A DNA stretch of 56,684 bases, from assembly GCA_964470815.1 (NCBI GenBank), contig CAYYEH010000010.1, forward strand, positions 1-56,684, written 5' to 3'. The notes under the pieces were generated by a model, which was given only the letters and a program-made list of their open reading frames with translations, did not search any database and was not told where the DNA came from. The translations under genes and the position numbers were made by a program. Source of the stretch: an uncultured Rikenella sp. Lineage in GTDB: Bacteria > Bacteroidota > Bacteroidia > Bacteroidales > VadinHA17. This document shows positions 22,093 through 34,883 of the stretch, in pieces (position 1 is the first letter of the stretch; every line of letters starts with the position of its first letter).

Positions 22093-22728
22093 ATGGAAAA
22101 ACTCAATGACGGCAGCGGAAAGCTGTCAGACGGCTACAACAAGATCGAGAAATGGAATCCTGAAGTCATAGAGGAGATGTCGGGATATTACTACAAGATA
22201 CTCAAGCTACTTGGGGAGGATCCTGACAGGGAGGGACTGGCAAAGACTCCGGAGAGGGTTGCCAAGGCACTCAGTTTCCTGACGCGAGGATACCAGTCAA
22301 ACCCGGAGGAGATACTACGGAGTGCAATGTTCAGGGAGGAGTACAGGCAGATGGTGATAGTGAAGGATATCGACATCTATTCAATGTGCGAGCATCATAT
22401 GCTGCCTTTTCACGGCAAGGCTCATGTGGCATACATCCCTGACGGTTATATCACCGGGCTGAGCAAGATAGCCAGGGTGGTGGAGACCTATTCAGCGAGG
22501 CTTCAGGTACAGGAGAGACTTACCACCCAGATCCGCAACTGTATACAGGAGAACCTGAAGCCGCTGGGGGTGGCGGTGGTCATCGAGGCACAGCACATGT
22601 GCATGCAGATCAGGGGTGTACAGAAACAGAACTCTGTCACCACCACCTCAGCTTTCACCGGCTGTTTTCTCTCAAACCTGAACACGCGTGAGGAGTTTAT
22701 GCATCTTATAGCCAGCAGGCTTCACTGA
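22093..22728 (+). CDS. folE: GTP cyclohydrolase I
   Basis: [40 protein letters not shown]. Confidence 0.97.
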
Positions 22729-22761
22729 TAACTTTTTATTGACACCACATCTGATTTAACT

Positions 22762-23649
22762 ATGAAGGCGTTTGTATTCCCCGGGCAGGGGGCGCAGTAC
22801 CCGGGTATGGGAAAGGATCTCTATGAGAACTACCCTGTGGCGCGCGATATTTTTGAAAAGGCCAATGCACAGCTTGGCTTCCGTATAACTGACACCATGT
22901 TTTCAGGCACTGATGAGGAGCTGAGGCAGACGCGGGTGACACAGCCTGCCATCTTCCTTCACTCGGTGGTTCTTACATCTGTGGCCGGCAGCGCATTTGT
23001 GCCTGCGATGGTTGCAGGACACTCACTGGGGGAGTTTTCCGCGCTGGTGGCTGCCGGCGCCCTCTCCTTCGAAGAGGGGCTGGCACTCGTTGCCGGCAGG
23101 GCATCAGCCATGCAGCGTGCCTGCGGCATCAATCCCTCAACCATGGCTGCCATCCTGGGCATGGATGATACAATGGTGGAGGAGGTATGTGCCGCACTGA
23201 ATGAGACCGTGGTGCCGGCCAACTACAACAGTCCCGGCCAGATAGTCATCTCCGGCACCATGGAGGGGGTGGCGGCAGCCACAGAAGAGCTCAGGAAACG
23301 TGGCGCCAGGCGGATAGTGCCGCTGTCAGTAAGCGGCGGCTTCCACTCACCATGCATGGAACCGGCAAGACAGGAACTGGAAGAGGCAATAAGGAAGGCA
23401 CGGTTCAGCCGCCCGGTATGCCCGGTCTACCAGAACGTATCCGGATTACCTGTGACCGAACCACAGGAGATAATGGCAAACCTGATAGCCCAGCTAACCT
23501 CACCGGTGCGGTGGACACAGACCGTTCAGCAGATGACAGCCGACGGCGCAACTGAATTCATTGAAGCGGGGCCTGGCAACGTACTGCAGGGGCTGATCAA
23601 AAAGATAAACCCGGCTGTGACGGCCACACCGCTTGCCATTAACGGCTGA
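22762..23649 (+). CDS. fabD: Malonyl-CoA:ACP transacylase
   Basis: FPGQGAQ, TQPAI, GHSLGE, FHSP.M, PVRW. Confidence 0.97.
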   Translation: MKAFVFPGQGAQYPGMGKDLYENYPVARDIFEKANAQLGFRITDTMFSGTDEELRQTRVTQPAIFLHSVVLTSVAGSAFVPAMVAGHSLGEFSALVAAGALSFEEGLALVAGRASAMQRACGINPSTMAAILGMDDTMVEEVCAALNETVVPANYNSPGQIVISGTMEGVAAATEELRKRGARRIVPLSVSGGFHSPCMEPARQELEEAIRKARFSRPVCPVYQNVSGLPVTEPQEIMANLIAQLTSPVRWTQTVQQMTADGATEFIEAGPGNVLQGLIKKINPAVTATPLAING

Positions 23650-23757: not shown

Positions 23758-26700
23758 TCATTCTCCCTCTGATATCACTGCCATCCCTATCTTGCCATCC
23801 ATCCTGATAATCAGGGGCCTGGAGAACCTTACATGCCTGAACCAGGTCCCTTTGCCTGTCTCCGGCATCTTTCGCAGTTTATCCCACATGATCACCCCTT
23901 CAGCGGTGGCTTCGTTCACGGCAAGGTAGCCTATTCTCATGGAAGTGACATTATGGAAGAAATGAGAGCCCTGTGAAGCATCGATATGGAAATTCGGCAT
24001 GCTCACCTCCACTATTATCCTTGCATTGGATATCTGGGGCCACTCTACGGGTATTCCCAGGAAACGGTCCTTGGTACCCCATCGTCCTGGACCGATGAGG
24101 ACATATTTTTTTCCCTCGGCCAGCATCTGCCTGTTGATGGCATCGATCTCTGCCGCCATTTCGTTGGTCTTCAGATTGTCAAACGTCTCAGGCTCAACAT
24201 AGATTATATCGGTTATCCCTTCTACCAGCCCGTTGCCCATGCTCTTTCTTGAGACAAGAAGTGTTTCTTCCGTATAGACACTCTCAGGGTCGATAGAATA
24301 ACCGGCGCCGCTTCCAACCAGGGGTTTTATCTGCAACAGGTAAAAGGTGGCCTTTCCCTCTTCGTCCTTTGTAAGGTCAACGGCATATTCGATCTCCACG
24401 GGTGCCCCGAAGGCTTCCCTTACCACTTCCAGAACCGTTTTAAGGGTTCGTGCAAGGGGCATGTAGTCATACTTCAGGATATTTGCGAAGTTGACCACTC
24501 TCGGGCCGGGCACCCCTAATCCGGGCACAAGAGTATCATTGTCAATACTGTATACTGAAACGGAATGGGTCAGAGTGCCGTCTCTCTCTGCCCTGGAGAT
24601 ATCAAGTTTCACCAGGCCGGCATTCTCCCCGAGCAGAAGGTCAACCTCGCTGCGTGCCAGGTTTACTGCATAAAATTCTGTCTGTGAATAGCGCATCAGG
24701 TCCCTGATGGAGACTATATCGAGGGCGGGGTATGCAGGTGAGAACCTGAAGGCTCTCTCCCCGTCAAGCACATACTGTCCCAGTCCCACGGCAGCCACGG
24801 CAAAGCCATCGTGAGTGGTCATGCTGGCCACCGGGTAGAAATTGAACGATTGAGCCGTTCCGCTTATATGAGGATAAAAGATGTCACCGTACCTGTTGCC
24901 CACTACAGCCTGTATAACCACCGCCATCTTCTCCTGTTCGATCTTGTAGTTTACTGCCTCAAAATAGATACGGGAGTTGTCAGAGTAAATTGAGGAGAAA
25001 ACGAGCTTGATGGCCCCGATGAGCTGCATAAGCCTCACTTCAGGGTCAGGATGGTTGTTTGGCAGGAGGTATGTGCCGAAGATGCCCGAGAAGGGCTGGC
25101 TCAGTGAGTCCTCGAAGAGGCTGGATGACCTCACTGCCAGAGGTCTGGAATTAAGCCTGATGAATACCCTGAGTTTGTGTTCCAGGTCATCGCTGAGAGT
25201 GCCGGCCAGGAAGTGCTTCTGCAGGACGGTAAAATCCTTTTCCCGGCTGACCACTTCCCACAGCCGGTTCGTATCCATGAACTGGTCGAACTCATCGGTA
25301 CCGATGATGGCGGTGACCGGTGTCCGGATATTGATGCCGGGGAGCAGGCGTCCCAGCTCGAAGCTGTAGATAAGTGTGCTTATGAATGCCAGGCCACGTC
25401 CTTTTCCTCCTAGGGAGCCGCCGGCAAAACTAACCACGTTTGATTCGTCTATCATTACAGACTCGTCGAAGTTCACCACCTTGCCCTTGTTCATCTCCCG
25501 GCGCCGTTTGCGTATGATATCGAGGAGAAACTCCCTCATCTCCCTGAGGCTGTTGAAGTCAGACACCTTGACCGGGTTGATCATCTTGGCTATCTTCACC
25601 TCTCCCCTGGCCATCAGCCAGAGTGAGAAGTGGTTTTTCATCGCATGATAAACGAGTGAGTCTTCGGGAACAGTCTTGAGGAATGCTTCAAACTCTTTCA
25701 TCGATTTGGCCACGGCTATCTGTCGCCCCTTGGTGTCACGGTAGACAAAATGGCCGAAGCCGAGGTAATATGTAATGAATGACTTGAGATCCTGCAGAAG
25801 TGTTTCGGAGTTCTTGTTGATGAAGCTGGCCTTGAGTTCCGCTGCCCACCGGGCGTTCTCGGGGTCAGATGACTGCAGTACGGTAGGCAGGTTTGGCTGG
25901 TCCTCCCGCAGGAGCCTGATCATTTCAAAGCCTGCCATTTTGTAAAGCTCGCCATTCCTGGGGAAACGCATGTCAGAGATGACCCCCAGCAGGCGGTCCT
26001 TATACTTGGTGTAGATTGCCATTGCCTCCTCCCAGTTTGTAGCCAGGAGTATCTTGGGTCTGGCCCTCAGCTTGAGCACCTTGTAAAGTTCATCCGCAGA
26101 TACGTCTTCAATGAGTATGCGTGTCTGCTCCAGCACCAGGCTGTAAAGCATCGGCACATAGCTGGAATAGTAATCAGGTGCATCCTCTATTATCAGTATC
26201 ACCCTTGTCAGCCCCTTCTCCGTGTCATTGCCCACATTCACCTTGTCCTCAAGCAGCTTTGCCATGGCGAAGAAAACGCGTGACTCACCGGTCCATACGA
26301 AGAGGTTGTCATACGGAACGCCCTGCTTCCTCTGATCCTGTACGAAGGGGATATCTCCCGGATTATTAAGCAGGAGGTATGTAGGGATGTAAGGATATTT
26401 CTCCTTCAACTTGCGGCAGAGGCTCATAGGGTTGACCTTGTCAACGCCTACCATGATAATGATCATATCATAATGTCTCGCCTCGAGGCGTGAGAAGGCC
26501 TCATCCTCACCTGAGACCCCGGTAATGCGGGGGATAGTAGTAAGACTCATCTGGTAGTATTCTCCGAGCATATAGTCGGAGAAACGCCCCTCTCCCTCGA
26601 TGGAATAGGCATCATAAAGACTGGCTACCAGCAGTATCTCTCTGACCATGAAAGGCATAAGGTCATGAAAGACATCCCTCTCCGCATTATGCCTGTCAAG

Positions 26701-27204
26701 GAACTGCTGCAGCAGTTTTCTGATCGACTGGTTTTCAGGGTCATTCAGCTCAGTCAGCCCGGTATTCCTGTCTGATTCAGGTGGAGAGTCGGCTGCCAGG
26801 CTGTTTATATATCCGGTGATAAGGCAGGCAAACCTTGAGAGGAGCTCTCGTTCTTCCTTCTGGAACGGGCCATCATCCTCCGGGAGGAAGGGGAGTATGT
26901 AGCATACTTCCACCATCCCTTCACCTCCCAGGGCTCTGAATCCCCGTGATATCTTCCACCCTGTTTCGGTGAACCCCGGTGTTTCATAGCTCCTGCCGCG
27001 ATAGATGATGCGGGCAACGGTATAACCAGGGTACTGGAACGCCTCCGGCAATCCCAGAACAAGATGCATGAGTGTCTCATCCACGGGTTTGCGTTCCTTC
27101 AGAATCTGGGTGGCGCGGTTAATACATGCCAGTTCCTTGAGGCGTTCCTGCTGGTTATGAACATCACGCGTAAAGCCGGTACCGGGGTCAGGACAATCAG
27201 TCAT
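23758..27204 (-). CDS. PEP/pyruvate-binding (PPDK_N ATP-grasp) domain protein with GAF-like and receiver-like N-terminal domains
   Basis: ERLKELACI...FQYP; ILIIED and VISDMRFP receiver parts; GGKGRGL, VRSSSLFED, YLLQIKP and GSHFFHN. Start uncertain (27204 or 27297). Confidence 0.8.
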   Translation of the reverse strand: MTDCPDPGTGFTRDVHNQQERLKELACINRATQILKERKPVDETLMHLVLGLPEAFQYPGYTVARIIYRGRSYETPGFTETGWKISRGFRALGGEGMVEVCYILPFLPEDDGPFQKEERELLSRFACLITGYINSLAADSPPESDRNTGLTELNDPENQSIRKLLQQFLDRHNAERDVFHDLMPFMVREILLVASLYDAYSIEGEGRFSDYMLGEYYQMSLTTIPRITGVSGEDEAFSRLEARHYDMIIIMVGVDKVNPMSLCRKLKEKYPYIPTYLLLNNPGDIPFVQDQRKQGVPYDNLFVWTGESRVFFAMAKLLEDKVNVGNDTEKGLTRVILIIEDAPDYYSSYVPMLYSLVLEQTRILIEDVSADELYKVLKLRARPKILLATNWEEAMAIYTKYKDRLLGVISDMRFPRNGELYKMAGFEMIRLLREDQPNLPTVLQSSDPENARWAAELKASFINKNSETLLQDLKSFITYYLGFGHFVYRDTKGRQIAVAKSMKEFEAFLKTVPEDSLVYHAMKNHFSLWLMARGEVKIAKMINPVKVSDFNSLREMREFLLDIIRKRRREMNKGKVVNFDESVMIDESNVVSFAGGSLGGKGRGLAFISTLIYSFELGRLLPGINIRTPVTAIIGTDEFDQFMDTNRLWEVVSREKDFTVLQKHFLAGTLSDDLEHKLRVFIRLNSRPLAVRSSSLFEDSLSQPFSGIFGTYLLPNNHPDPEVRLMQLIGAIKLVFSSIYSDNSRIYFEAVNYKIEQEKMAVVIQAVVGNRYGDIFYPHISGTAQSFNFYPVASMTTHDGFAVAAVGLGQYVLDGERAFRFSPAYPALDIVSIRDLMRYSQTEFYAVNLARSEVDLLLGENAGLVKLDISRAERDGTLTHSVSVYSIDNDTLVPGLGVPGPRVVNFANILKYDYMPLARTLKTVLEVVREAFGAPVEIEYAVDLTKDEEGKATFYLLQIKPLVGSGAGYSIDPESVYTEETLLVSRKSMGNGLVEGITDIIYVEPETFDNLKTNEMAAEIDAINRQMLAEGKKYVLIGPGRWGTKDRFLGIPVEWPQISNARIIVEVSMPNFHIDASQGSHFFHNVTSMRIGYLAVNEATAEGVIMWDKLRKMPETGKGTWFRHVRFSRPLIIRMDGKIGMAVISEGE

Positions 27205-27337
27205 CTGGGCTTGAGGTAAAGATGATGCCAAAATACACAAAAAGAGAATAGAATGTAACAGCCGGCCCCCCCTGAGAGGTGACCGGCTGATTATCATGGA
27301 CGGGCTGCTTCCGGCAGCCTCCGCGTTATTGCTGCAA

Positions 27338-28360
27338 TTACTTCACCTCCCAGGTTGAGCCGCTATTCAGGAGGTCATCAACACTCCTTATCTGTGACTT
27401 CGCCTGTACCCTCTGATGCTGCTCAATCATTGCGGCGTCATAGGTCTGGGCATTGATTGCCCTGATAACGCCCAGTGCTATGGGGTATTCGGGAAGAGAC
27501 ATTCCGGCGAGCCGGTAGTGGATCCCCGGGTTGGGTTCGTGAGCATCATGGGTCAGTATATCATCTTCCGTGATGCCGTCTTCACCGATCTTAACCACCC
27601 TCAGTTTGAGGTCCTTGAGGATTATGCCCTTGTCGCGGTTCTTGCCGAAGATCATCTTCTGGCCATGGTGCAGGACAAGGGTATTGTCATCACGGGTCTC
27701 CTTGCTGGTAAATGCATCAAAGGCGCCGTCATTGAAGATGACGCAGTTCTGGATTACCTCAACGACGGCAGTGCCATGAAATTTTGCTGCCTCCTTGTAT
27801 ACCTCATTGGAGAGCTGCAGGTTATAGTCAACCGTGCGTGCAAAAAAGCGTCCGTTGGCTCCGATAGTAAGCTCACCTATCTTGAAAGGTTCCTCAATGG
27901 TACCGTAGGGTGATGTTTTGGTTGCAAGCCCTTTCTTGGAGGTTGGAGAATACTGTCCCTTGGTCAGGCCGTAAATTTCATTGTTGAAGAGTATTATCTT
28001 GATGTCAATATTACGTCTGATGGCGTGGATATAGTGGTTTCCGCCAATTGCCAGCGCGTCACCGTCGCCGGTCATCTCCCAGACCATCAGGTCAGGGTTG
28101 GCTATTTTGATCCCGGTGGCAATTGCTGCGGCCCTGCCGTGGATTCCGTGGAAACCGTAGGTATTCATATAGTAAGGGAGCCTTGAGGAGCATCCGATAC
28201 CTGATACGAACACATATTTTTCTCTTGGTATGTCAAGTTCTGCAAGTGTCTTCTGAAGTGAAGCCAGGATGCCATGGTCACCGCAACCCGGGCACCATCT
28301 CACTTCCTGGTCGCTCTTGAAGTCCTTAGCTACGTAGTGGTTTGTTATCGTTTCAGCCAT
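27338..28360 (-). CDS. korB: 2-oxoacid:ferredoxin oxidoreductase beta subunit
   Basis: WCPGCGD, SGIGCSSR, HGIHGRA, GDGD, NNEIYGLTKGQYSPT. Confidence 0.95.
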   Translation of the reverse strand: MAETITNHYVAKDFKSDQEVRWCPGCGDHGILASLQKTLAELDIPREKYVFVSGIGCSSRLPYYMNTYGFHGIHGRAAAIATGIKIANPDLMVWEMTGDGDALAIGGNHYIHAIRRNIDIKIILFNNEIYGLTKGQYSPTSKKGLATKTSPYGTIEEPFKIGELTIGANGRFFARTVDYNLQLSNEVYKEAAKFHGTAVVEVIQNCVIFNDGAFDAFTSKETRDDNTLVLHHGQKMIFGKNRDKGIILKDLKLRVVKIGEDGITEDDILTHDAHEPNPGIHYRLAGMSLPEYPIALGVIRAINAQTYDAAMIEQHQRVQAKSQIRSVDDLLNSGSTWEVK

Positions 28361-30206
28361 TTTTCTTACCCTTAAGCAGTTTAACACAATGATCCTTAAT
28401 CTCTTTGACGGTGAATGGAAGCCCCTGAATCTTGTTGTACTGGTAGTACGTAAACTTCTGGTGCTTCATCCTGAGGTAGTTTGCAAACTGGCCGTTATTC
28501 AGCTCGCATACCAGCAGCCTGTCAAATCCGGCAAACACTTTAGCGGTGTTTTTCGGGAGTGGCCTGATATAGTTGAAGACCACGGCTGACACACTGTATC
28601 CCTCCTGCTGCAGTTCAGTGACTGCAGTGGTGATTTGCCCGTAGGTACTCCCCCATCCTATCAGGAGCATGTCACCTGTTTTCTTTCCGAAGATCTTGAG
28701 GTCAGGTACATTTTTCACGATCCGTTCCACCTTTTCCTCCCGCATCCTGACCATGTACTCATGGTTTTCAGGTGTGTATGAAACGCTTCCCTTTATTGTT
28801 TTCTCAAGTCCACCGACACGGTGTTCCAGCCCTGGGGTGCCGGGGATGGCCCATTTGCGTACGAGTGTTTCAGGATCTCTCTCATACGCAAGATATTCCT
28901 TGTCGGATTTCACTGCATACGGAACTGAAATGTCAGGCAGATCCTTCATTGCTGGGATCTTCCATGGCTCAGAACCGTTTGCCAGGTAACTGTCAGTCAG
29001 GAGTAACACGGGTGTCATGTGCTCAACGGCAATTTTTGCTGCTTCAAAAGCGAACCTGAAGCAGTCAGAAGGGGTGCCGGCTGCAATTACCGGGACGGGG
29101 CTCTCTCCGTTTCGGCCGTAGAGGGCCTGCCACAGGTCAGCCTGTTCGGTCTTGGTCGGCAGCCCTGTTGAGGGACCGCCTCTCTGGACATCGACAACCA
29201 CCAGGGGCAGCTCTGTCATTACGGCCAGGTTCAGTGCTTCCGACTTGAGTGCAAGTCCAGGTCCTGATGTGGTTGTCACAGCCATTCTCCCGGTGAAGCT
29301 GGCACCGATGGCGGTGCAGATACCGGCTATTTCATCCTCTGCCTGGAGACTCTTTACCCCCATATCCTTTCTAAGCGCAAGCTCCTCGAGTATACCGGTG
29401 GCCGGTGTGATGGGATATGAACCGATGAAGAGCTTAAGCCCGGCCTTCTCGGCTGCGGCAAGCACACCCCATGCAGTGGCCTGGTTGCCGTTGATGTTAC
29501 GATAGGTACCCTTTGCGATCGGGGCAGGGCCTACCCTGTAGGAAGGGGTAAGAGCTTCAATGGTCTCGCCGTAATAGTAACCTGCCCTGAGCACTTTGCT
29601 GTTGGCTTCGGCCACCTGTGGCTTCTTGCCGAACTTGTCATCAATGAAATCCTCGGTGTACTTCAGCTGGCTGTCAAAAAGCCAGTAAACCATCCCGAGT
29701 GCAAACATATTCTTCGTTCTCAGGACAGTTTTGGGATCGAGGTCCATGTCCTTCAACGCCTCCTTCACAAGTGTGGTTATAGGGGCAGCAATGAGGTTCA
29801 TCGAGTCAAGCTTGTCCTCGGCAAACGGGTCAGCCTTGTAGCCAGCCCTCTGTATCTGTTTCTCAGTGAAGTTGTCAGAGTCATAAATGATGGTCGAACC
29901 TTTCCTGAGCCACCTGGCATTTGCACGAACAGCTGCAGGATTCATTGCCACAAGAATGTCGGTGAAATCACCCGGAGTGTTAATCAGCTTATGACCTATG
30001 TGTACCTGGAAACCGGAGACACCACCTACGGTGCCCTGCGGAGCCCTTATCTCTGCAGGATAATCCGGAAAGGTGGATATGTCATGTCCGAACAGGGCTG
30101 ACGTGTTGGAGAAGAGGGTGCCTGTAAGCTGCATCCCGTCTCCTGAGTCGCCTGAGAACCTGATCACCACTGCATCCTTCTCAATGACCTTTGATCTTTT
30201 TCCCAT
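28353..30206 (-). CDS. korA: 2-oxoacid:ferredoxin oxidoreductase alpha subunit
   Basis: GDSGDGMQL, YPAEIR, YPITPA, QAEDEIA, TSGPG, QRGGPSTGLPT. Confidence 0.95.
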   Translation of the reverse strand: MGKRSKVIEKDAVVIRFSGDSGDGMQLTGTLFSNTSALFGHDISTFPDYPAEIRAPQGTVGGVSGFQVHIGHKLINTPGDFTDILVAMNPAAVRANARWLRKGSTIIYDSDNFTEKQIQRAGYKADPFAEDKLDSMNLIAAPITTLVKEALKDMDLDPKTVLRTKNMFALGMVYWLFDSQLKYTEDFIDDKFGKKPQVAEANSKVLRAGYYYGETIEALTPSYRVGPAPIAKGTYRNINGNQATAWGVLAAAEKAGLKLFIGSYPITPATGILEELALRKDMGVKSLQAEDEIAGICTAIGASFTGRMAVTTTSGPGLALKSEALNLAVMTELPLVVVDVQRGGPSTGLPTKTEQADLWQALYGRNGESPVPVIAAGTPSDCFRFAFEAAKIAVEHMTPVLLLTDSYLANGSEPWKIPAMKDLPDISVPYAVKSDKEYLAYERDPETLVRKWAIPGTPGLEHRVGGLEKTIKGSVSYTPENHEYMVRMREEKVERIVKNVPDLKIFGKKTGDMLLIGWGSTYGQITTAVTELQQEGYSVSAVVFNYIRPLPKNTAKVFAGFDRLLVCELNNGQFANYLRMKHQKFTYYQYNKIQGLPFTVKEIKDHCVKLLKGKKNG

Positions 30207-30408: not shown

Positions 30409-31215
30409 TCACGACCAGATATCAGCCTTTGTCAGGTTTATGGAGCTCTCGAAAAACATCCGTGCTATCTTCTCGAAGTAGTCGGTATAGTCAGAGACGA
30501 AGAAGAGATCCTCTCCTGCCGCTCCCCTGTTTACCAGGTTATGTTTCTCAAGCACCTCCCTGAGCCTGACAGCCACGATGCGTGCCGAGTCAACCACTTC
30601 AACGTTGAAATTGAAGAATTTACTGATCTGGTTACGGATAATCGGGTAGTGTGTGCACCCCAGGATAAGTGCATCGATATTGTTCAGACGGGGATCAGAT
30701 AGATAGGTGCGGACGATGGCATTGGAGATGTCATCAAAGATGAAACCCTCCTCTATCATGGGCACCAGCAGCGGCGTTGCCAGTGAGGCAATTGCGGTCG
30801 AGGGGGCTGCCTCATGAAGCTTTTTCTCATATGTGCCGGAACTGATGGTGCGTTTGGTTCCGATAACACCCAGCCTGGAGTAGTGCCTGGATGAGCAGTA
30901 TTCGACTACCGGGTTTATGACATCGAGTATAATGACCCTGTCACCGTATTCCGCTAGCAGCGCCTCGTATGCAGATGCTGATGCCGAATTACAGGCAACA
31001 AGGACCAGCTTTGCATCATAACCCAGAAGGAATTCGGTGATCTTTCTTGAATAGCCCCTGATGGCCTCCTCCGACTTGTCACCGTATGGCAGGTGTGCGG
31101 TATCACCGAAGTAAACAATACGTTCGCCGGGAAGGATCTGGCGGATGGCCTGTGCCACCGTCAATCCTCCCACACCTGAGTCAAATACCCCGATAGGACG
31201 GTTGCTTGCTTCCAT
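30409..31215 (-). CDS. murI: Glutamate racemase
   Basis: FDSGVGGLTV, GDTAHLPYG, ACNSAS, LGCTHYP. Confidence 0.97.
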   Translation of the reverse strand: MEASNRPIGVFDSGVGGLTVAQAIRQILPGERIVYFGDTAHLPYGDKSEEAIRGYSRKITEFLLGYDAKLVLVACNSASASAYEALLAEYGDRVIILDVINPVVEYCSSRHYSRLGVIGTKRTISSGTYEKKLHEAAPSTAIASLATPLLVPMIEEGFIFDDISNAIVRTYLSDPRLNNIDALILGCTHYPIIRNQISKFFNFNVEVVDSARIVAVRLREVLEKHNLVNRGAAGEDLFFVSDYTDYFEKIARMFFESSINLTKADIWS

Positions 31216-31231
31216 AATGGTCTGATGTAAG

Positions 31232-31255
31232 ACTGCCCGCCGGAAGGCGGGCAGT
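31232..31255. terminator. GC-rich hairpin between skp and murI (terminator or stabiliser)
   Basis: Perfect 10-bp stem ACTGCCCGCC/GGCGGGCAGT, without a clear U-tract. Confidence 0.5.
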
Positions 31256-31269
31256 GCTGTTTATCCATT

Positions 31270-31785
31270 TTATTGCTTTGTTCCCAGCTTCGTCTTTACC
31301 AGAGGACTGATGTCCGTGCTCTTTACGGTGTCTACATAGACAAGGGTACGTACATCATAGATATAGATGTAACCGCCCTCCTTTGCAACGGCATTGATGG
31401 CATTGGTAGCCTTCTCAATGATAGGGTTAAGTAACTCCGCCTGCTTATCCTGCAATTGAACCTGTGCCTGCTGCTGGAAGTTGTTGATGCGGTTCTGCAT
31501 GTCAGCCAGCTCCTGCTCCTTGTTGGCCTTCACCAGGTCAGTGAGGTTCTTGCTGTCCTTCACATACTGGTCAAGCTTGTTGTTGTACTCAACCTGCATC
31601 AGTTCCAAAGCATTTGTCAGCTCCTGCCCGAATGCATTGTATTTCTTCATTGCTGAGTCATAGTCAGGCATCGTCATGATGATTTCATCGCGGTTGATGT
31701 GGCCTGTCTTGAACGACTGCGCAAATCCATCCTGTGCCGTGAAAACCAGTACAGCAAACAGGAGTATCCCAAACACTTTCTTCAT
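31270..31785 (-). CDS. OmpH/Skp chaperone
   Basis: Signal peptide, KTGHIN, helical body, AVAKEGGY.YIYD, DI..LVK.KLG. Confidence 0.9.
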   Translation of the reverse strand: MKKVFGILLFAVLVFTAQDGFAQSFKTGHINRDEIIMTMPDYDSAMKKYNAFGQELTNALELMQVEYNNKLDQYVKDSKNLTDLVKANKEQELADMQNRINNFQQQAQVQLQDKQAELLNPIIEKATNAINAVAKEGGYIYIYDVRTLVYVDTVKSTDISPLVKTKLGTKQ

Positions 31786-31824
31786 TGTCTTGTTTTTCAA
31801 AATTTAACGTGCAAATGTAATTAT

Positions 31825-32349
31825 TTAATTCTTATAACCCAGTTTCTGGAGAACCTGGTCGGAGAGATCATATCTCGGGTTTGCAAACAGGATATTTGAA
31901 CCTGCCGAGGTATCAAATATCACTGCATAGCTTCCTTCAACGGATATCTCCTTGATAGCCTTCAGGATCTCATCCTGTATCGGTTTTACCAGTTCCTCCC
32001 GTTTCTTGTAGAGTTCTCCTTCCATTCCGAAATACCTGTTCTGGAGATCCTTCACCTCTTTTTCACGTGCAATGATTGCTTCCTCTCTCTTTTTCTTCTG
32101 ATCCGGTGAGAGGATCACCACCTCTGCCTGGTAATCCTTATACAACTGCTCCACCTGTGCATAGCCGTCAGCCACTTCCTTCTCCCAGCCCTGGGATAGT
32201 TTGTCAAGCTGCTGCTGTGCTGCAGTGAATGCAGGTATATTATTTCTGATGTATTCGCTGTCAACAAAGGCGAATTTCTGGGATGCGCCTGTCAGTGTGG
32301 CTGCAAGCACCAGGAGTGTCATGACTGTGATCTTCTTCATAGCTGTCAT
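31825..32349 (-). CDS. OmpH/Skp chaperone
   Basis: QKFAFVDSEYI, LVKPIQDEI, YDLSDQVLQKLGY. Confidence 0.9.
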   Translation of the reverse strand: MTAMKKITVMTLLVLAATLTGASQKFAFVDSEYIRNNIPAFTAAQQQLDKLSQGWEKEVADGYAQVEQLYKDYQAEVVILSPDQKKKREEAIIAREKEVKDLQNRYFGMEGELYKKREELVKPIQDEILKAIKEISVEGSYAVIFDTSAGSNILFANPRYDLSDQVLQKLGYKN

Positions 32350-32363
32350 TTTTTGTTTTTTTC

Positions 32364-34883
32364 TCAGAATTGCTGTCCTATCACGAAGTGGAACTGGCTT
32401 CCGGAGTCCTCAGGTGATCCGTATACCGGTGAGTCAAATCCGTATCCCCAGTCTATCCCGAGGAGTCCGAACATCGGGAGGTTAGCCCTGAGGCCTATTC
32501 CTGCCGAGCGGTTCATTCTGAACGGGTTGTAATCCTTTATGTCATACCATGCCCTTCCTGCCTCGAGGAATGCCAGGCCGTAGATGGTTGCCTGCGGGTT
32601 AAGTGAGATGGGATACCTGAGTTCAAGGGTGAGCTTGGAATAAACGTTGCCTGACTCCACCCTCCTGGTTGACCCGTTTTCGGTCTTGTCAATCCTGGGA
32701 GTCAGCGAGCCGTTGGTATAACCCCTGAGGGCTATGACCTCGCGCCCGTAGAAGCTGTATCCGGTCATGCCGTCACCTCCAACGTAGAAGTTCTCAAATG
32801 GTGAAGGGCCTATGTCCCTGTTGTAGAAGCCGAGGTAGCCGAAGGCTGCTTTTGCATTGAGGATCAGCTTCTGCTGGTTGTCAAGCGGAAGGAAATAATC
32901 AGCTTTGAAGACAGCCTTGTAAAACTCTATCCATTTGTATTTTTCCTCGTCGGGAATACCTGCCATATTTTTCCCGCTGAGAGCCGAATATGGCGGGGTT
33001 GCCTGGAGTGAAAGCGAGAAGGTTGAGCCCGTCCGCGGGAATATGGTGTTCGGCCCTGCCGAGAATCTTGTCAGTCTTGCGCTGAGGGAAGCAAGGTTGG
33101 CAGTTCCGTTCGTAAACAGGAACTGGTAATAGCTGTATTTATTAAGGCTGTACCTCTGGTAGCTTGCTTCATAATAAACGGAGAAATAGTTATCTGGCCA
33201 CTCAAGCCGCTTGCCGAATCCCACTGAGGCTCCGTCAATGATCATTGACTGCCTGTCATCTTCGCCCTTTTTGGAGCCGTTGGTCATGAGTGAACGGAAA
33301 GCAGAAATTGAAAGGGTGTTGGGTTTCTTTCCGCCGAGCCATGGTTCGATGAATGAAATATTGTAAGACTGGTACACGCGGCCGTTTGACTGTGCCCTTA
33401 TCTGCAGTGACTGTCCGTCACCGGAAGGATATGGTCTCCACTCATTCCACTTGAAGAAGTTGCGCATGGCGAAGTTGTTGAACCTCACCCCCACCGTTCC
33501 CACGAGCATGCCTGCGCCCCAGCCGCCGGAGATTTCGAACTGGTCATTGGCCTTCTCCTCCAGGGCATACAACAGGTCAACCGTACCGTCAACCTGGTTA
33601 AGAAGTGGCTGCGGATTGATCTTTTCAGGGTCAAAATGGCCAAGCACAGCAACCTGCCTGGCAGACCGTATCAGGTTCTCCTTGCTGAACAGGTCACCCG
33701 GCATCGTGAAGAGCTCACGCCGTGCGACATGCTCATTTGTGCGGGTGTTGCCGCTGATAATAACATTATTGAGAGTGGCGGGGTCACCTTCAAAAATACG
33801 CACCTCAAGATCAATTGAGTCACCTTCAATCTTCTTCTCAACAGGGGTCAGCCTTGAGAAGAGGTAACCATAATTGAGATAGAGTGAGCTAACGGCATCA
33901 TCGTCAACGTTGAGCCTCTTGTCAATCATGGTCTGGTTATAGATCTCACCCGAAGGAAAGTTAAAGACCCGGGTAAGCTGATCCTTGGTATAGATGCTGT
34001 TGCCCACCCAGTCTACATTTCTGAGGTAGTACTGGTTACCCTCGTTGATCTTCACCACCAGCACCATTTTGCCGTCTTCCAGCGCGTAGGTGGAGTCACC
34101 CAGAATGCGGAAATCACGGAAACCGTTTTCGTTGTAAAACTCCACCAGGCTGTTGCGGTCCTCCTTAAACTTATCCTCAATGAATTTGGATCCCTTGAAG
34201 ATATTCAGGTCCTTCTGTTTGGTGTTCTTCATAACACGGCGCAGCCGCCTGGTCTCGAAGAAGTCATTGCCCATAAACTGAATTTCTTCAATCCTGACTT
34301 TTTCGTTTTTGCTGATGATGAAGTTCAGAATCACGTTATTGGGCATATCTGGGTCATCTTTCTGTATGACATCAACGCCCACGTTCAGGAATCCCTTCTC
34401 AATATAGTGGTCCTTTATGGTGCGTTCGGCCCTGTTAAGCAGGTGGGCGGTAACCTGGGATCCTCCGGGGAGGCTTAGTTTCTCTATCAGGTCGGTCTCT
34501 TCAGATTTTCTTATGCCTTCAAACCTGAGTGATGAGAGACGGGGTCTTTCCTGGAGGTAAATGTCAAGCCATATGTTTTCTCTCTCCTTTCCGGTAATGG
34601 TGATCTTCACGTCGGAGAAAAGCCCCTGGTCCCACAGCTTTCTGACGGCAGCGGTGATCACCTCTCCGGGAATCTCCACTTTCTGGCCGATTCTGAGGCC
34701 TGAGATGCCGATAAGGGCATTGGGTTCAAGGAACTTCACCCCTGAAATGGTAATTCCGGCAATGGTATAATCGTCGGGGTATAGATAATTTACATATTTG
34801 TCCTCTGTCTGGGCTGTGGCAAACAGCCCTGTCAGGAGCAAGGCAAAAAGGGAGATTATCCGCATAGATTTCATTTTCATCAT
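32364..34883 (-). CDS. bamA: Outer membrane protein assembly factor
   Basis: POTRA repeats, GNTRTNEHVARREL, LRGY and C-terminal FHFVIGQQF. Confidence 0.95.
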   Translation of the reverse strand: MMKMKSMRIISLFALLLTGLFATAQTEDKYVNYLYPDDYTIAGITISGVKFLEPNALIGISGLRIGQKVEIPGEVITAAVRKLWDQGLFSDVKITITGKERENIWLDIYLQERPRLSSLRFEGIRKSEETDLIEKLSLPGGSQVTAHLLNRAERTIKDHYIEKGFLNVGVDVIQKDDPDMPNNVILNFIISKNEKVRIEEIQFMGNDFFETRRLRRVMKNTKQKDLNIFKGSKFIEDKFKEDRNSLVEFYNENGFRDFRILGDSTYALEDGKMVLVVKINEGNQYYLRNVDWVGNSIYTKDQLTRVFNFPSGEIYNQTMIDKRLNVDDDAVSSLYLNYGYLFSRLTPVEKKIEGDSIDLEVRIFEGDPATLNNVIISGNTRTNEHVARRELFTMPGDLFSKENLIRSARQVAVLGHFDPEKINPQPLLNQVDGTVDLLYALEEKANDQFEISGGWGAGMLVGTVGVRFNNFAMRNFFKWNEWRPYPSGDGQSLQIRAQSNGRVYQSYNISFIEPWLGGKKPNTLSISAFRSLMTNGSKKGEDDRQSMIIDGASVGFGKRLEWPDNYFSVYYEASYQRYSLNKYSYYQFLFTNGTANLASLSARLTRFSAGPNTIFPRTGSTFSLSLQATPPYSALSGKNMAGIPDEEKYKWIEFYKAVFKADYFLPLDNQQKLILNAKAAFGYLGFYNRDIGPSPFENFYVGGDGMTGYSFYGREVIALRGYTNGSLTPRIDKTENGSTRRVESGNVYSKLTLELRYPISLNPQATIYGLAFLEAGRAWYDIKDYNPFRMNRSAGIGLRANLPMFGLLGIDWGYGFDSPVYGSPEDSGSQFHFVIGQQF

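Follow-up and report, generated by a model that had tools for sequence, protein, structure and literature searches.

In PpsA (2ols) and PPDK (1dik, 2fm4), an ATP-grasp domain is followed by a phosphohistidine carrier domain, whose [S/T]-H motif sits at the N-terminus of a helix, and by a PEP/pyruvate TIM barrel. The rifampin phosphotransferase of Listeria monocytogenes (RPH; 5hv1, 5hv3, 5fbu) ends in a swivel His-type domain, which a large rifampin-binding domain separates from its PPDK_N ATP-grasp, and has no TIM barrel. The gene analysed here (23758..27204, minus strand), in a window of 56,684 nucleotides that represents the whole stretch of DNA studied, encodes a protein of the sensor-bearing LONG subtype of a family found in Bacteroidales and in other Bacteroidota classes. 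LONG shares with PpsA and PPDK an ATP-grasp followed by a candidate carrier, the two-domain module superposing rigidly on theirs, and with RPH the PPDK_N fold (Foldseek E 1e-13, VIA Z 26-27) and the C-terminal position of the swivel domain. It differs from PpsA and PPDK by the absence of the TIM barrel, so that it cannot make PEP, and from RPH by having only a short linker in place of the substrate-binding domain, by a carrier-like domain that is unrecognisable by sequence and about 70 residues larger than the canonical ones, and by receiver, sensor and DUF5752 domains that RPH lacks.

Two other systems bear comparison. The nitrogen-PTS enzyme I (EI-Ntr, or PtsP) carries a GAF sensor, reported to sense glutamine and 2-oxoglutarate, ahead of a swivel phospho-His domain, and passes its phosphate to protein in connection with nitrogen status. 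We draw a functional analogy and not a claim of membership: LONG likewise has a sensor-like domain ahead of a swivel domain, on which the EIN-Ntr swivel subdomain aligns with Z scores of 4.4-5.4, whereas the phosphate of PtsP comes from PEP by way of a TIM barrel rather than from ATP by way of an ATP-grasp, PtsP has no receivers, and the sensor of LONG is not demonstrably a GAF domain. In response regulators whose output is enzymatic, too, an N-terminal receiver that retains the Asp, Ser/Thr and Lys signature is followed by a catalytic module; LONG differs in having a pseudo-receiver and a sensor before the true receiver, and in having no linked partner kinase. We know of no response regulator with a dikinase-type ATP-grasp as its output, and a literature search for one found none.

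The open frame spans 23758..27297 on the minus strand (1179 residues, stop codon 23758-23760), and the true start is Met32 at 27204, giving a protein of 1148 residues. Three observations place it there, in agreement with the preliminary description: homologues are 1146-1150 residues long; Met32 is common to the genus orthologues, in which the upstream sequence diverges or contains a stop; and strains sampled by RNA-library contigs carry 1-nt deletions upstream, at 27266 and 27273. The in-frame extension 27205-27297 is thus probably untranslated. As described earlier, the genes immediately upstream, in the same orientation, are korB (27338-28387) and korA (28353-30206), which encode a two-subunit 2-oxoacid:acceptor oxidoreductase (TIGR03710, 665 bits, above the cut-off); the LONG gene begins 134 nt downstream of them. 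In the korB–LONG intergenic region (27205..27337), whose sequence is not kept in orthologues, no terminator-like site was found on the gene's strand, and an RNA-library contig (X5, 27013-27827) spans the gap; a sigma-70 promoter scan is uninformative for Bacteroidales. RNA libraries of four studies contain pieces of the gene, with incomplete coverage and depths unfit for ranking expression.

The N-terminal sensor-like domain (26770..27165, residues about 45-176) occurs in one to four tandem copies in LONG-type homologues, and none of 40 copies matches a Pfam family. The GAF-like character proposed for it earlier is hinted at by the best PDB profile match, the Nlh2 GAF domain (4g3v, E 0.05, helix 1 only), and by Atlas GAF clusters scoring 0.87-0.89, under the lead threshold of 0.9; we describe the domain as possibly GAF-like. 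The next domain, REC1 (26233..26670, residues about 210-355), is receiver-like by profile, the family profile matching PDB receiver domains (3hv2, E 9.6e-6). It lacks both the acidic pair, replaced by Ala/Ser/Cys and Asn/Ser/Thr, and the acceptor Asp, replaced by a hydrophobic residue, and on this residue pattern the first receiver copy is a degenerate pseudo-receiver. REC2 (25798..26208, residues about 364-500) retains Glu371-Asp372, the acceptor Asp442 (codon 25972-25974), Ser476 and Lys495, all invariant in 78 of 78 Bacteroidales homologues (42 LONG and 36 SHORT). Its Pfam Response_reg score of 23.3 bits is below the cut-off of 30.2, so the assignment rests on this residue pattern. The receiver segments ILIIED and VISD of the preliminary description are real, both belonging to this second receiver, and the domain anatomy bears out a signal-input architecture ahead of a dikinase-type ATP-grasp. 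The degenerate first receiver and the DUF5752/OrfY-like helical domain are additions to that description.

The helical DUF5752/OrfY-like domain (25432..25764) has a conserved GFGDF motif and an invariant Trp560. It matches PF19027 with 25.2 bits against a cut-off of 23, over profile positions 20-126 of 208 only, and residues 1-82 of our structural model superpose on Thermoproteus tenax OrfY (4cso) with a VIA Z score of 10.1 (rmsd 2.1, 82 aligned residues). The same profile has no match in the Bacteroides thetaiotaomicron control genome, which, given so weak a domain match, does not imply that the family is absent there. The following domain (24316..25431) is the PPDK_N-type ATP-grasp recognised earlier (PF01326, residues 628-994, E 1.3e-33). 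Its motifs GGK630-632, RSS723-725, ED729-730, Q796, E968/E970 and Q989 are all conserved, the ATP/Mg motifs being invariant across Bacteroidales homologues.

The AlphaFold2 model of residues 520-1179 (pLDDT 91, pTM 0.89) aligns with PpsA 2ols over 357 residues (Z 27.1; model 86-660 on chain 10-467), with PPDK 1dik over 350 residues (Z 19.4; 101-660 on 8-511), and with RPH structures 5hv1 (Z 26.7) and 5hv2/5hv3 (Z 22-26, extending through residue 866-867). These superpositions cover about 70-115 residues more than the ATP-grasp alone. They work where the PPDK conformer has its His domain next to the nucleotide domain, as in 1dik, and fail on the other conformer (1vbg, rmsd 14; 2r82, in which only the grasp aligns). 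In the model, the ATP-grasp runs to about residue 477 and the C-terminal domain begins at about 490, and RPH aligns only through its residues 6-314 and 755-867.

What had been described as a short tail with a His in GSHFFHN is a confidently folded domain of 185 residues (23761..24315, pLDDT 93) with a predicted swivelling beta/beta/alpha fold; the His stands, as the first one of GSHFFHN (23950-23970), and is His1112 (codon 23962-23964). GPGRWG, Glu1097, Ser1108 and G-S-H-F-F-x-N are invariant in this domain, and G-[S/T]-H-F-F-x-N is kept by all 76 Bacteroidales homologues with coverage at this position; of the distant representatives, 139 of 143 have it too. In the domain model, His1112 follows a strand and a loop and opens helix 117-125, which by the model is the position of the T-S-H motif in PPDK. 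The domain co-aligns with the His domains of PpsA, PPDK and RPH in the whole-module superpositions, and the top eight structural matches of the isolated domain are all phosphohistidine or PEP-utilizer-type domains, among them the RPH His domain (755-867, Z 6.2-6.4) and the PPDK central domain (373-510, Z 6.1-6.4). Non-catalytic swivel-fold domains score close to these, with a gap of less than one Z unit (DRTGG, 6.2; chaperonin apical domain, 5.3-5.5).

Sequence methods returned nothing for this domain: it has no match to PF00391 (PEP-utilizers), which in this genome matches only the PPDK and a 781-residue open frame ending in a PEP-utilizers domain; hhalign comparisons with 30 swivel domains from Bacteroidota stayed at or below a probability of 0.4%, whether run in local, low-mact or global mode; the family profile found nothing for it among PDB sequences; and an Atlas feature search yielded no usable match. 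The structure prediction and Foldseek search proposed earlier thus succeeded for the module, which matches PpsA, RPH and PPDK, and gave no match at E <= 0.001 for the isolated domain, for which the fold-level VIA comparison is the informative one. The best reading of the modelled fold is a divergent swivel-type phosphohistidine carrier, which we treat as a candidate. The protein stops 185 residues past the ATP-grasp, the model shows a single swivel domain there, and no Pfam match to a PEP-utilizers_C TIM barrel was found, in line with the earlier claim that a PEP-binding barrel is missing. NCBIfam PEP-synthase models score 19-41 bits against equivalog cut-offs of 598-883, and on these two grounds we reject, as the preliminary description did, an identity as PEP synthase.

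The family is very large: searches matched over 7000 close homologues and about 9700 representative clusters, and it is present in 111 of 121 Bacteroidales families sampled, which include dominant gut and digester anaerobes. Its members are routinely mislabelled as 'PEP synthase', 'pyruvate phosphate dikinase' or 'CheY-like protein'. In a FastTree phylogeny with SH-like supports only, the LONG subtype is a distinct clade. The neighbourhood survey suggested earlier identified glutamate dehydrogenase (GDH) as the commonest neighbour, at 33 of 60 Bacteroidales loci in several different arrangements, and the remaining 27, including the present locus, have no GDH within the examined flank. Among 20 loci from other Bacteroidota classes, about 14 have a GDH-type gene within 1.5 kb. 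In the genome of the present locus, two paralogues flank gdhA, whose stop precedes the start of the downstream paralogue by 4 nt. The earlier statement that related genes lie beside glutamate dehydrogenase holds in all three settings. All ten of the searched genomes of the order that lack the family still have GDH, so GDH does not need the family and co-occurrence is not obligate. Fusions did not name an acceptor, homologues of unusual length showing nothing beyond additional sensor repeats or another catalytic module, in some cases with no receiver (P0257, P0259). Literature searches for DUF5752, OrfY or PPDK_N joined to a receiver found no paper on the family, nor did a search under the tentative B. 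thetaiotaomicron locus tags BT1970-1973 (BT1971 is a catalase).

We give about an even chance to the reading that LONG is a receiver- and sensor-gated dikinase-type phospho-His enzyme with its acceptor in trans, acting at the 2-oxoglutarate/glutamate node. It would belong to the PEP-utilising dikinase superfamily, as a signal-gated phosphotransfer enzyme of the cytoplasm whose built-in acceptor domain was lost or never present. ATP would bind the PPDK_N ATP-grasp, the C-terminal swivel domain would dock on it, and a phosphoryl group would pass to His1112, as in PpsA, PPDK and rifampin phosphotransferase, with AMP or ADP as the putative product; the carrier would then swing off and deliver the phosphate to an acceptor outside the known domains of the polypeptide. 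Activity would probably be set by phosphorylation of the receiver at Asp442 and by a small-molecule signal received through the N-terminal sensor-like domain. The physiological target would lie at the 2-oxoglutarate/glutamate node and would most probably be GDH or something acting on GDH; because relatives stand so often beside glutamate dehydrogenase, the family probably helps to control glutamate synthesis from 2-oxoglutarate and ammonia. The reading draws on the domain anatomy, the conserved residues, the fold matches, the gene linkage and the purifying selection; counting against it are the modest Z scores of the C-terminal domain, its silence to sequence methods, the loci and genomes in which the family and GDH occur apart, and the lack of a recurrent histidine kinase gene near the family that might serve the receiver as phosphodonor. 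A more specific version, to which we assign a low probability, makes the family the first protein-directed dikinase system, driven by ATP, gated by both receiver and metabolite and reversibly modifying GDH or a GDH-bound partner, which in Bacteroidales, largely devoid of the PTS, would fill the role played elsewhere by the nitrogen PTS or PknG-GarA. The GDH of Bacteroides fragilis reportedly undergoes reversible inactivation in vivo, as described in the 1980s, and this version could explain it; our search for literature on reversible GDH inactivation in Bacteroides found no paper.

The phosphate might instead go to a metabolite from the 2-oxoglutarate/glutamate/ammonia node that DUF5752 or a domain interface binds, with GDH linked only through the shared pathway. 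To our knowledge, all characterised PPDK_N dikinases, the top structural relatives of the module among them, act on small molecules or glucans; DUF5752 has invariant residues without an assigned role, and a pathway enzyme would be at home beside korAB and gdh. We nevertheless regard a small-molecule acceptor as rather unlikely, since only a short, lower-confidence linker and no recognisable substrate-binding domain lies between the ATP-grasp and the carrier, two receivers and a sensor are typical of regulators rather than of pathway enzymes, and genomes carry up to three or four paralogues. It is improbable, too, that the protein is a self-contained, ATP-driven phosphorelay in which His1112 phosphorylates Asp442 of the same protein or of a SHORT partner, the ATP-grasp and carrier replacing a histidine kinase and the phosphorylated receiver serving as output. 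Receivers ordinarily take phosphate from a His onto their Asp, the receiver signature here is invariant, LONG and SHORT genes are often adjacent or overlapping, and no histidine kinase was found among the recurrent neighbour clusters of the 60 loci, where a LuxR-type response regulator lies near the family in three. Yet about 12 of 141 distant representatives lack the acceptor Asp and keep G-S/T-H, the forms with two catalytic modules do without a receiver, several genomes have only LONG or only SHORT, and a closed relay would leave no output domain. A similarly small probability goes to a protein that is not a dikinase, being an ADP-forming ATP-grasp kinase or ligase or an ATP-dependent switch, with the swivel domain as a lid or partner-binding module and His1112 as a structural residue or general base. 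The near-equal scores of non-catalytic swivel folds, the failure to find sequence homology to PEP-utilizers, and the excess size of the domain with its extra invariant motifs, such as GPGRWG, favour this view; the position of the invariant G-[S/T]-H, at the start of a helix, and the placement of the domain where PpsA, PPDK and RPH have their carriers argue against it, and no ATP-grasp of the PPDK_N type is known to us to work without a His carrier.

The history of the locus bears on the last alternative, a decaying LONG copy left behind once SHORT and gdh were lost. Downstream, the ancestral cluster is bounded by the convergent folE and fabD genes (22093..23649, plus strand): the fabD-folE edge follows LONG-SHORT(-gdh) at two other loci (L007 and L045) and LONG in all genus orthologues, so that the present locus looks like a korAB-LONG-SHORT-gdh cluster minus SHORT and gdh. 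Such an ancestral cluster would explain the korAB neighbour. The korAB adjacency, from which the earlier description took a hint of the 2-oxoglutarate node, is kept in the genus and is best taken for a cluster remnant instead of a sign that KorAB is the target; the korAB link is real but secondary. The missing partner genes and the branch of this copy, the longest terminal one of its clade (0.52 against 0.18 for the sister), with a deviant amino-acid composition, would suit a relic. That reading is largely refuted and has very little probability left: the catalytic, receiver and carrier residues are all intact, gene pieces occur in RNA libraries, each of the 12 further species searched in the genus keeps the korAB-LONG-|fabD-folE order, and dN/dS against seven genus orthologues is 0.05-0.11, values by which the orphan copy is under strong purifying selection across the genus.

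The locus thus adds three points to the picture of the family: LONG as a distinct clade, an ancestral cluster that would explain korAB, and an orphan copy kept by strong purifying selection across the genus. Even the minimal result corrects a widespread annotation, in that the proteins have a hidden candidate carrier domain and no TIM barrel. If a gated phospho-His enzyme does act on the GDH step, two-component signalling would gain a new class of output and dikinase chemistry a new class of acceptor, and in Bacteroidales both ammonia assimilation and the 2-oxoglutarate pool would have a new point of control.

Sequence comparisons place the real start of the receiver/ATP-grasp gene downstream of korAB at Met32 (27204), within a minus-strand open frame of 1179 codons (23758..27297) whose numbering is used here. 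This start, already given in the preliminary description, is borne out because almost all of the >7000 family homologues found are 1146-1150 residues long, because Met32 is common to seven same-genus orthologues that diverge or carry a stop 5' of it, and because strains seen in RNA-library contigs have single-base deletions at 27266 or 27273 that would break the longer frame. The product is predicted to be cytoplasmic; the sole hydrophobic stretch of the open frame falls within the untranslated N-terminal extension. Pieces of the gene occur at 95-100% identity in RNA-library contigs from four independent anaerobic-digester or sludge studies, and one contig spans the gap between korB and this gene, although such contigs attest presence in RNA libraries, not transcript structure, and may reflect DNA carry-over. 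Inside korB (27624-27656), RNA-library contigs of three runs break with loose ends on both sides, probably through assembly joining to korB of other organisms at a conserved thiamine-diphosphate motif.

A FastTree phylogeny of 57 proteins resolves the family into two fully supported clades: LONG proteins of ~1150 residues or more with sensor domains, to which the window protein belongs, and SHORT proteins of ~1000 residues without them. Pfam profiles recognize PPDK_N (residues 628-994, E 1.3e-33), DUF5752 (residues 530-622, score just above the cut-off) and, below threshold, Response_reg (residues 403-488). The NCBIfam models for PEP synthase, PigC and RedH have cut-offs of 598-1350 bits, and the protein reaches 19-43 bits with them. 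Searching the PDB with the single protein sequence returned no match; a family profile matched the ATP-grasp domains of rifampin phosphotransferase (RPH) and PEP synthase, and many receiver domains at profile positions ~31-152.

One alignment comprised 153 representatives, and another 42 LONG and 36 SHORT Bacteroidales homologues. The first receiver (residues ~210-355) lacks the acidic pair, is hydrophobic where the acceptor would be, and is by sequence a pseudo-receiver. The second (residues ~364-500), which has an insertion between strands 1 and 3, keeps Glu371, Asp372, Asp442, Ser476 and Lys495 invariant, in agreement with the receiver-like segments reported earlier. Likewise, GGK630-632, RSS723-725, ED729-730, Gln796, Glu968/Glu970 and Gln989 are invariant in the ATP-grasp domain, which argues that nucleotide binding is intact. 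The DUF5752 region (model residues 1-82, protein 520-601) matches Thermoproteus tenax OrfY (4cso; Z 10.1, rmsd 2.1), and this OrfY-type fold is the structural face of DUF5752. The N-terminal domain (~45-176), which LONG proteins carry singly or as up to four tandem repeats, is sensor-like and possibly GAF-like. It matches no Pfam family, and the sole indications of GAF are a profile match to the Nlh2 GAF domain in the PDB (E 0.05, first helix only) and Atlas clusters (0.87-0.89). In one genome, the sensor-like domain stands alone in a 1.6-kb LONG-SHORT gap (locus L009:3708-4013, minus strand).

Using a 75-sequence alignment, AlphaFold2 modeled residues 520-1179 with a pLDDT of 91 and a pTM of 0.89, and residues 995-1179 with a pLDDT of 93. 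What had been taken for a short tail is thus a folded domain, whereas the histidine assigned to it is indeed conserved: since the motif reads GSHFFHN in LONG and GTHFFQN in SHORT proteins, the conserved residue is its first histidine, His1112 (codon 23962-23964). The other C-terminal invariants are GPGRWG1069-1074, Glu1097, Ser1108, Gly1110, Ser/Thr1111 and Asn1116. His1112 follows a strand and a loop and starts helix 117-125 of the domain model; in pyruvate phosphate dikinase (PPDK), T-S-H455 has the same strand-loop-helix arrangement.

Foldseek found no match to the isolated C-terminal domain at E <= 0.001. Its weak matches were LD-carboxypeptidase/MccF C-domains, PPDK, chaperonin apical domains and the extra domain of Bacillus stearothermophilus pyruvate kinase, all of which we take to have the swivelling beta/beta/alpha fold. 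Among the top ranks in a VIA-align comparison with 48,161 chains were a DRTGG domain (Z 6.2), the His domain of RPH (5hv1 756-867; Z 6.2 and rmsd 3.4 over 111 aligned residues) and the phosphoryl-carrier domain of PPDK (2fm4; Z 6.1, 117/128 aligned). When the Foldseek list was re-compared, the first eight were phosphohistidine or PEP-utilizer-type domains (Z 5.7-6.4), followed by apical domains (Z <= 5.5). Such Z values are modest and lie less than 1 above those of non-catalytic domains with this fold.

The 660-residue model superposed as one body provides what we regard as stronger evidence than isolated-domain Z values. It aligns with PEP synthase 2ols over 357 residues (Z 27.1, model 86-660 on chain 10-467), with PPDK 1dik over 350 residues reaching chain residue 511 (Z 19.4), and with RPH 5hv2/5hv3 up to residue 866-867. 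As ATP-grasp-only matches align ~235-290 residues, the 70-115 extra residues stem from superposition of the C-terminal domain on the His domain. The whole-module match works for PPDK crystal forms with the carrier domain beside the nucleotide domain, such as 1dik, but not for the other conformer (1vbg, rmsd 14; 2r82, grasp only). We consider it rather likely from the models that the C-terminal domain is a divergent phosphohistidine carrier. Against this reading, PF00391 does not match the domain, and when its profile was compared with those of 30 swivel domains from Bacteroidota the probability was 0.4%.

The family occurs in 111 of 121 sampled families of the order (one genome searched per family) and was not found in 18 genomes from other orders of the class. 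We surveyed 40 LONG and 20 stand-alone SHORT loci, mapping glutamate dehydrogenase (GDH), KorA, KorB, FabD and FolE and clustering all neighboring ORFs. GDH is by far the commonest neighbor (33/60 loci), encoded divergently from LONG (~23 loci) or downstream or upstream of SHORT, and KorAB is second (9/60); the clustered ORFs include no recurrent histidine kinase. The GDH association first described for relatives is therefore real, and is also seen in the window's own genome, where two paralogues adjoin gdhA. It extends to several other classes of the phylum, with a GDH-type gene within 1.5 kb at ~14 of 20 loci, sometimes on both sides, but is not obligate, since GDH is present in all ten searched genomes of the order that lack the family. 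In 7-10 of the 60 loci (L013:13047-16745, L046:2859-4634 and similar), NuoF-like (Complex1_51K) and GltD-like/molybdopterin-oxidoreductase fusion genes lie nearby, and may form a GDH-associated NAD(P)H/ferredoxin module.

The second cluster of the genome (contig C80, loci L002 and L003) surrounds gdhA. A LONG paralogue of >1447 residues, truncated where the contig stops and bearing four sensor-like domains in tandem, is divergent from gdhA, and a SHORT paralogue of 983 residues begins at a GTG 4 nt after the gdhA stop, a spacing that suggests translational coupling. The other GDH of this genome lies unlinked on a third contig.

The fullest cluster reads korA-korB-LONG-SHORT-gdh, followed by convergent fabD-folE (locus L045; L023 and L008 are similar), and in the window korA-korB-LONG is followed by fabD-folE, the two stop codons being only 108 nt apart. 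The window gene groups, with 95% SH-like support, with L008 (korAB..LONG-SHORT-gdh) and L007 (LONG-SHORT, then fabD-folE). The simplest history suggested by these comparisons is loss of SHORT and gdh from a korA-korB-LONG-SHORT-gdh cluster. The window's arrangement recurs in 12/12 other species of the genus searched and dN/dS against seven genus orthologues is 0.05-0.11, with dS saturated, indicating that the orphan copy is maintained and not decaying. Despite strong purifying selection, the terminal branch of the window protein is longer than any other in the clade (0.52; sister, 0.18) and its amino-acid composition deviates, which may reflect adaptation after loss of its SHORT/gdh partners. 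In-frame stops occur in the orthologue and the paralogue in several low-contig-count genus assemblies (L101, L103, L108, L110, L122); one genome has seven in the paralogue, and assembly error seems a likelier cause than pseudogenization. The minus-strand genes upstream of korAB (30409-34883) are bamA, a pair of skp/ompH genes and one resembling glutamate racemase. Other Bacteroidales families again have them close to korAB-linked members of the family, and they thus form a conserved housekeeping synteny block.

Taken together, sequence and models describe a complete nucleotide-binding ATP-grasp domain and a probable carrier domain on a flexible C-terminal linker, with an intact receiver, a pseudo-receiver before it and a sensor-like domain; neither revealed an acceptor domain of any known kind in the protein. 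In a two-step transfer of the PEP synthase/RPH type, ATP would phosphorylate His1112, which would pass the phosphoryl group to an acceptor supplied in trans, and Asp442 phosphorylation together with a sensor ligand would gate the reaction. The receiver present in the same chain could itself accept the phosphoryl group from His1112. This reading is weakened by ~12 of 141 representatives that have lost the receiver Asp yet keep G-S/T-H, and by receiver-less relatives with two catalytic modules. Relatives of unusual build (proteins P0257 and P0259; loci L145, L146, L150 and L151) include the latter, which carry two tandem ATP-grasp and carrier modules, and, in other Bacteroidota classes, 590-residue catalytic-only forms; these adjoin a distant GDH-like gene and a protein with the same sensor-like domain.

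For transfer in trans, GDH is the most economical candidate, a protein acceptor being hypothetical. Enzyme I donates from a swivel phospho-His domain to a protein, HPr, and in PtsP a domain of this kind lies downstream of a nitrogen sensor; these precedents are analogies only. The literature searched contained no characterization of the family. The architecture first described is confirmed with corrections, and its interpretation as a signal-controlled dikinase distinct from PEP synthase is partly supported. The window protein adds a new architecture to the PEP-utilising dikinase superfamily, and its genomic context points towards the 2-oxoglutarate-to-glutamate step.
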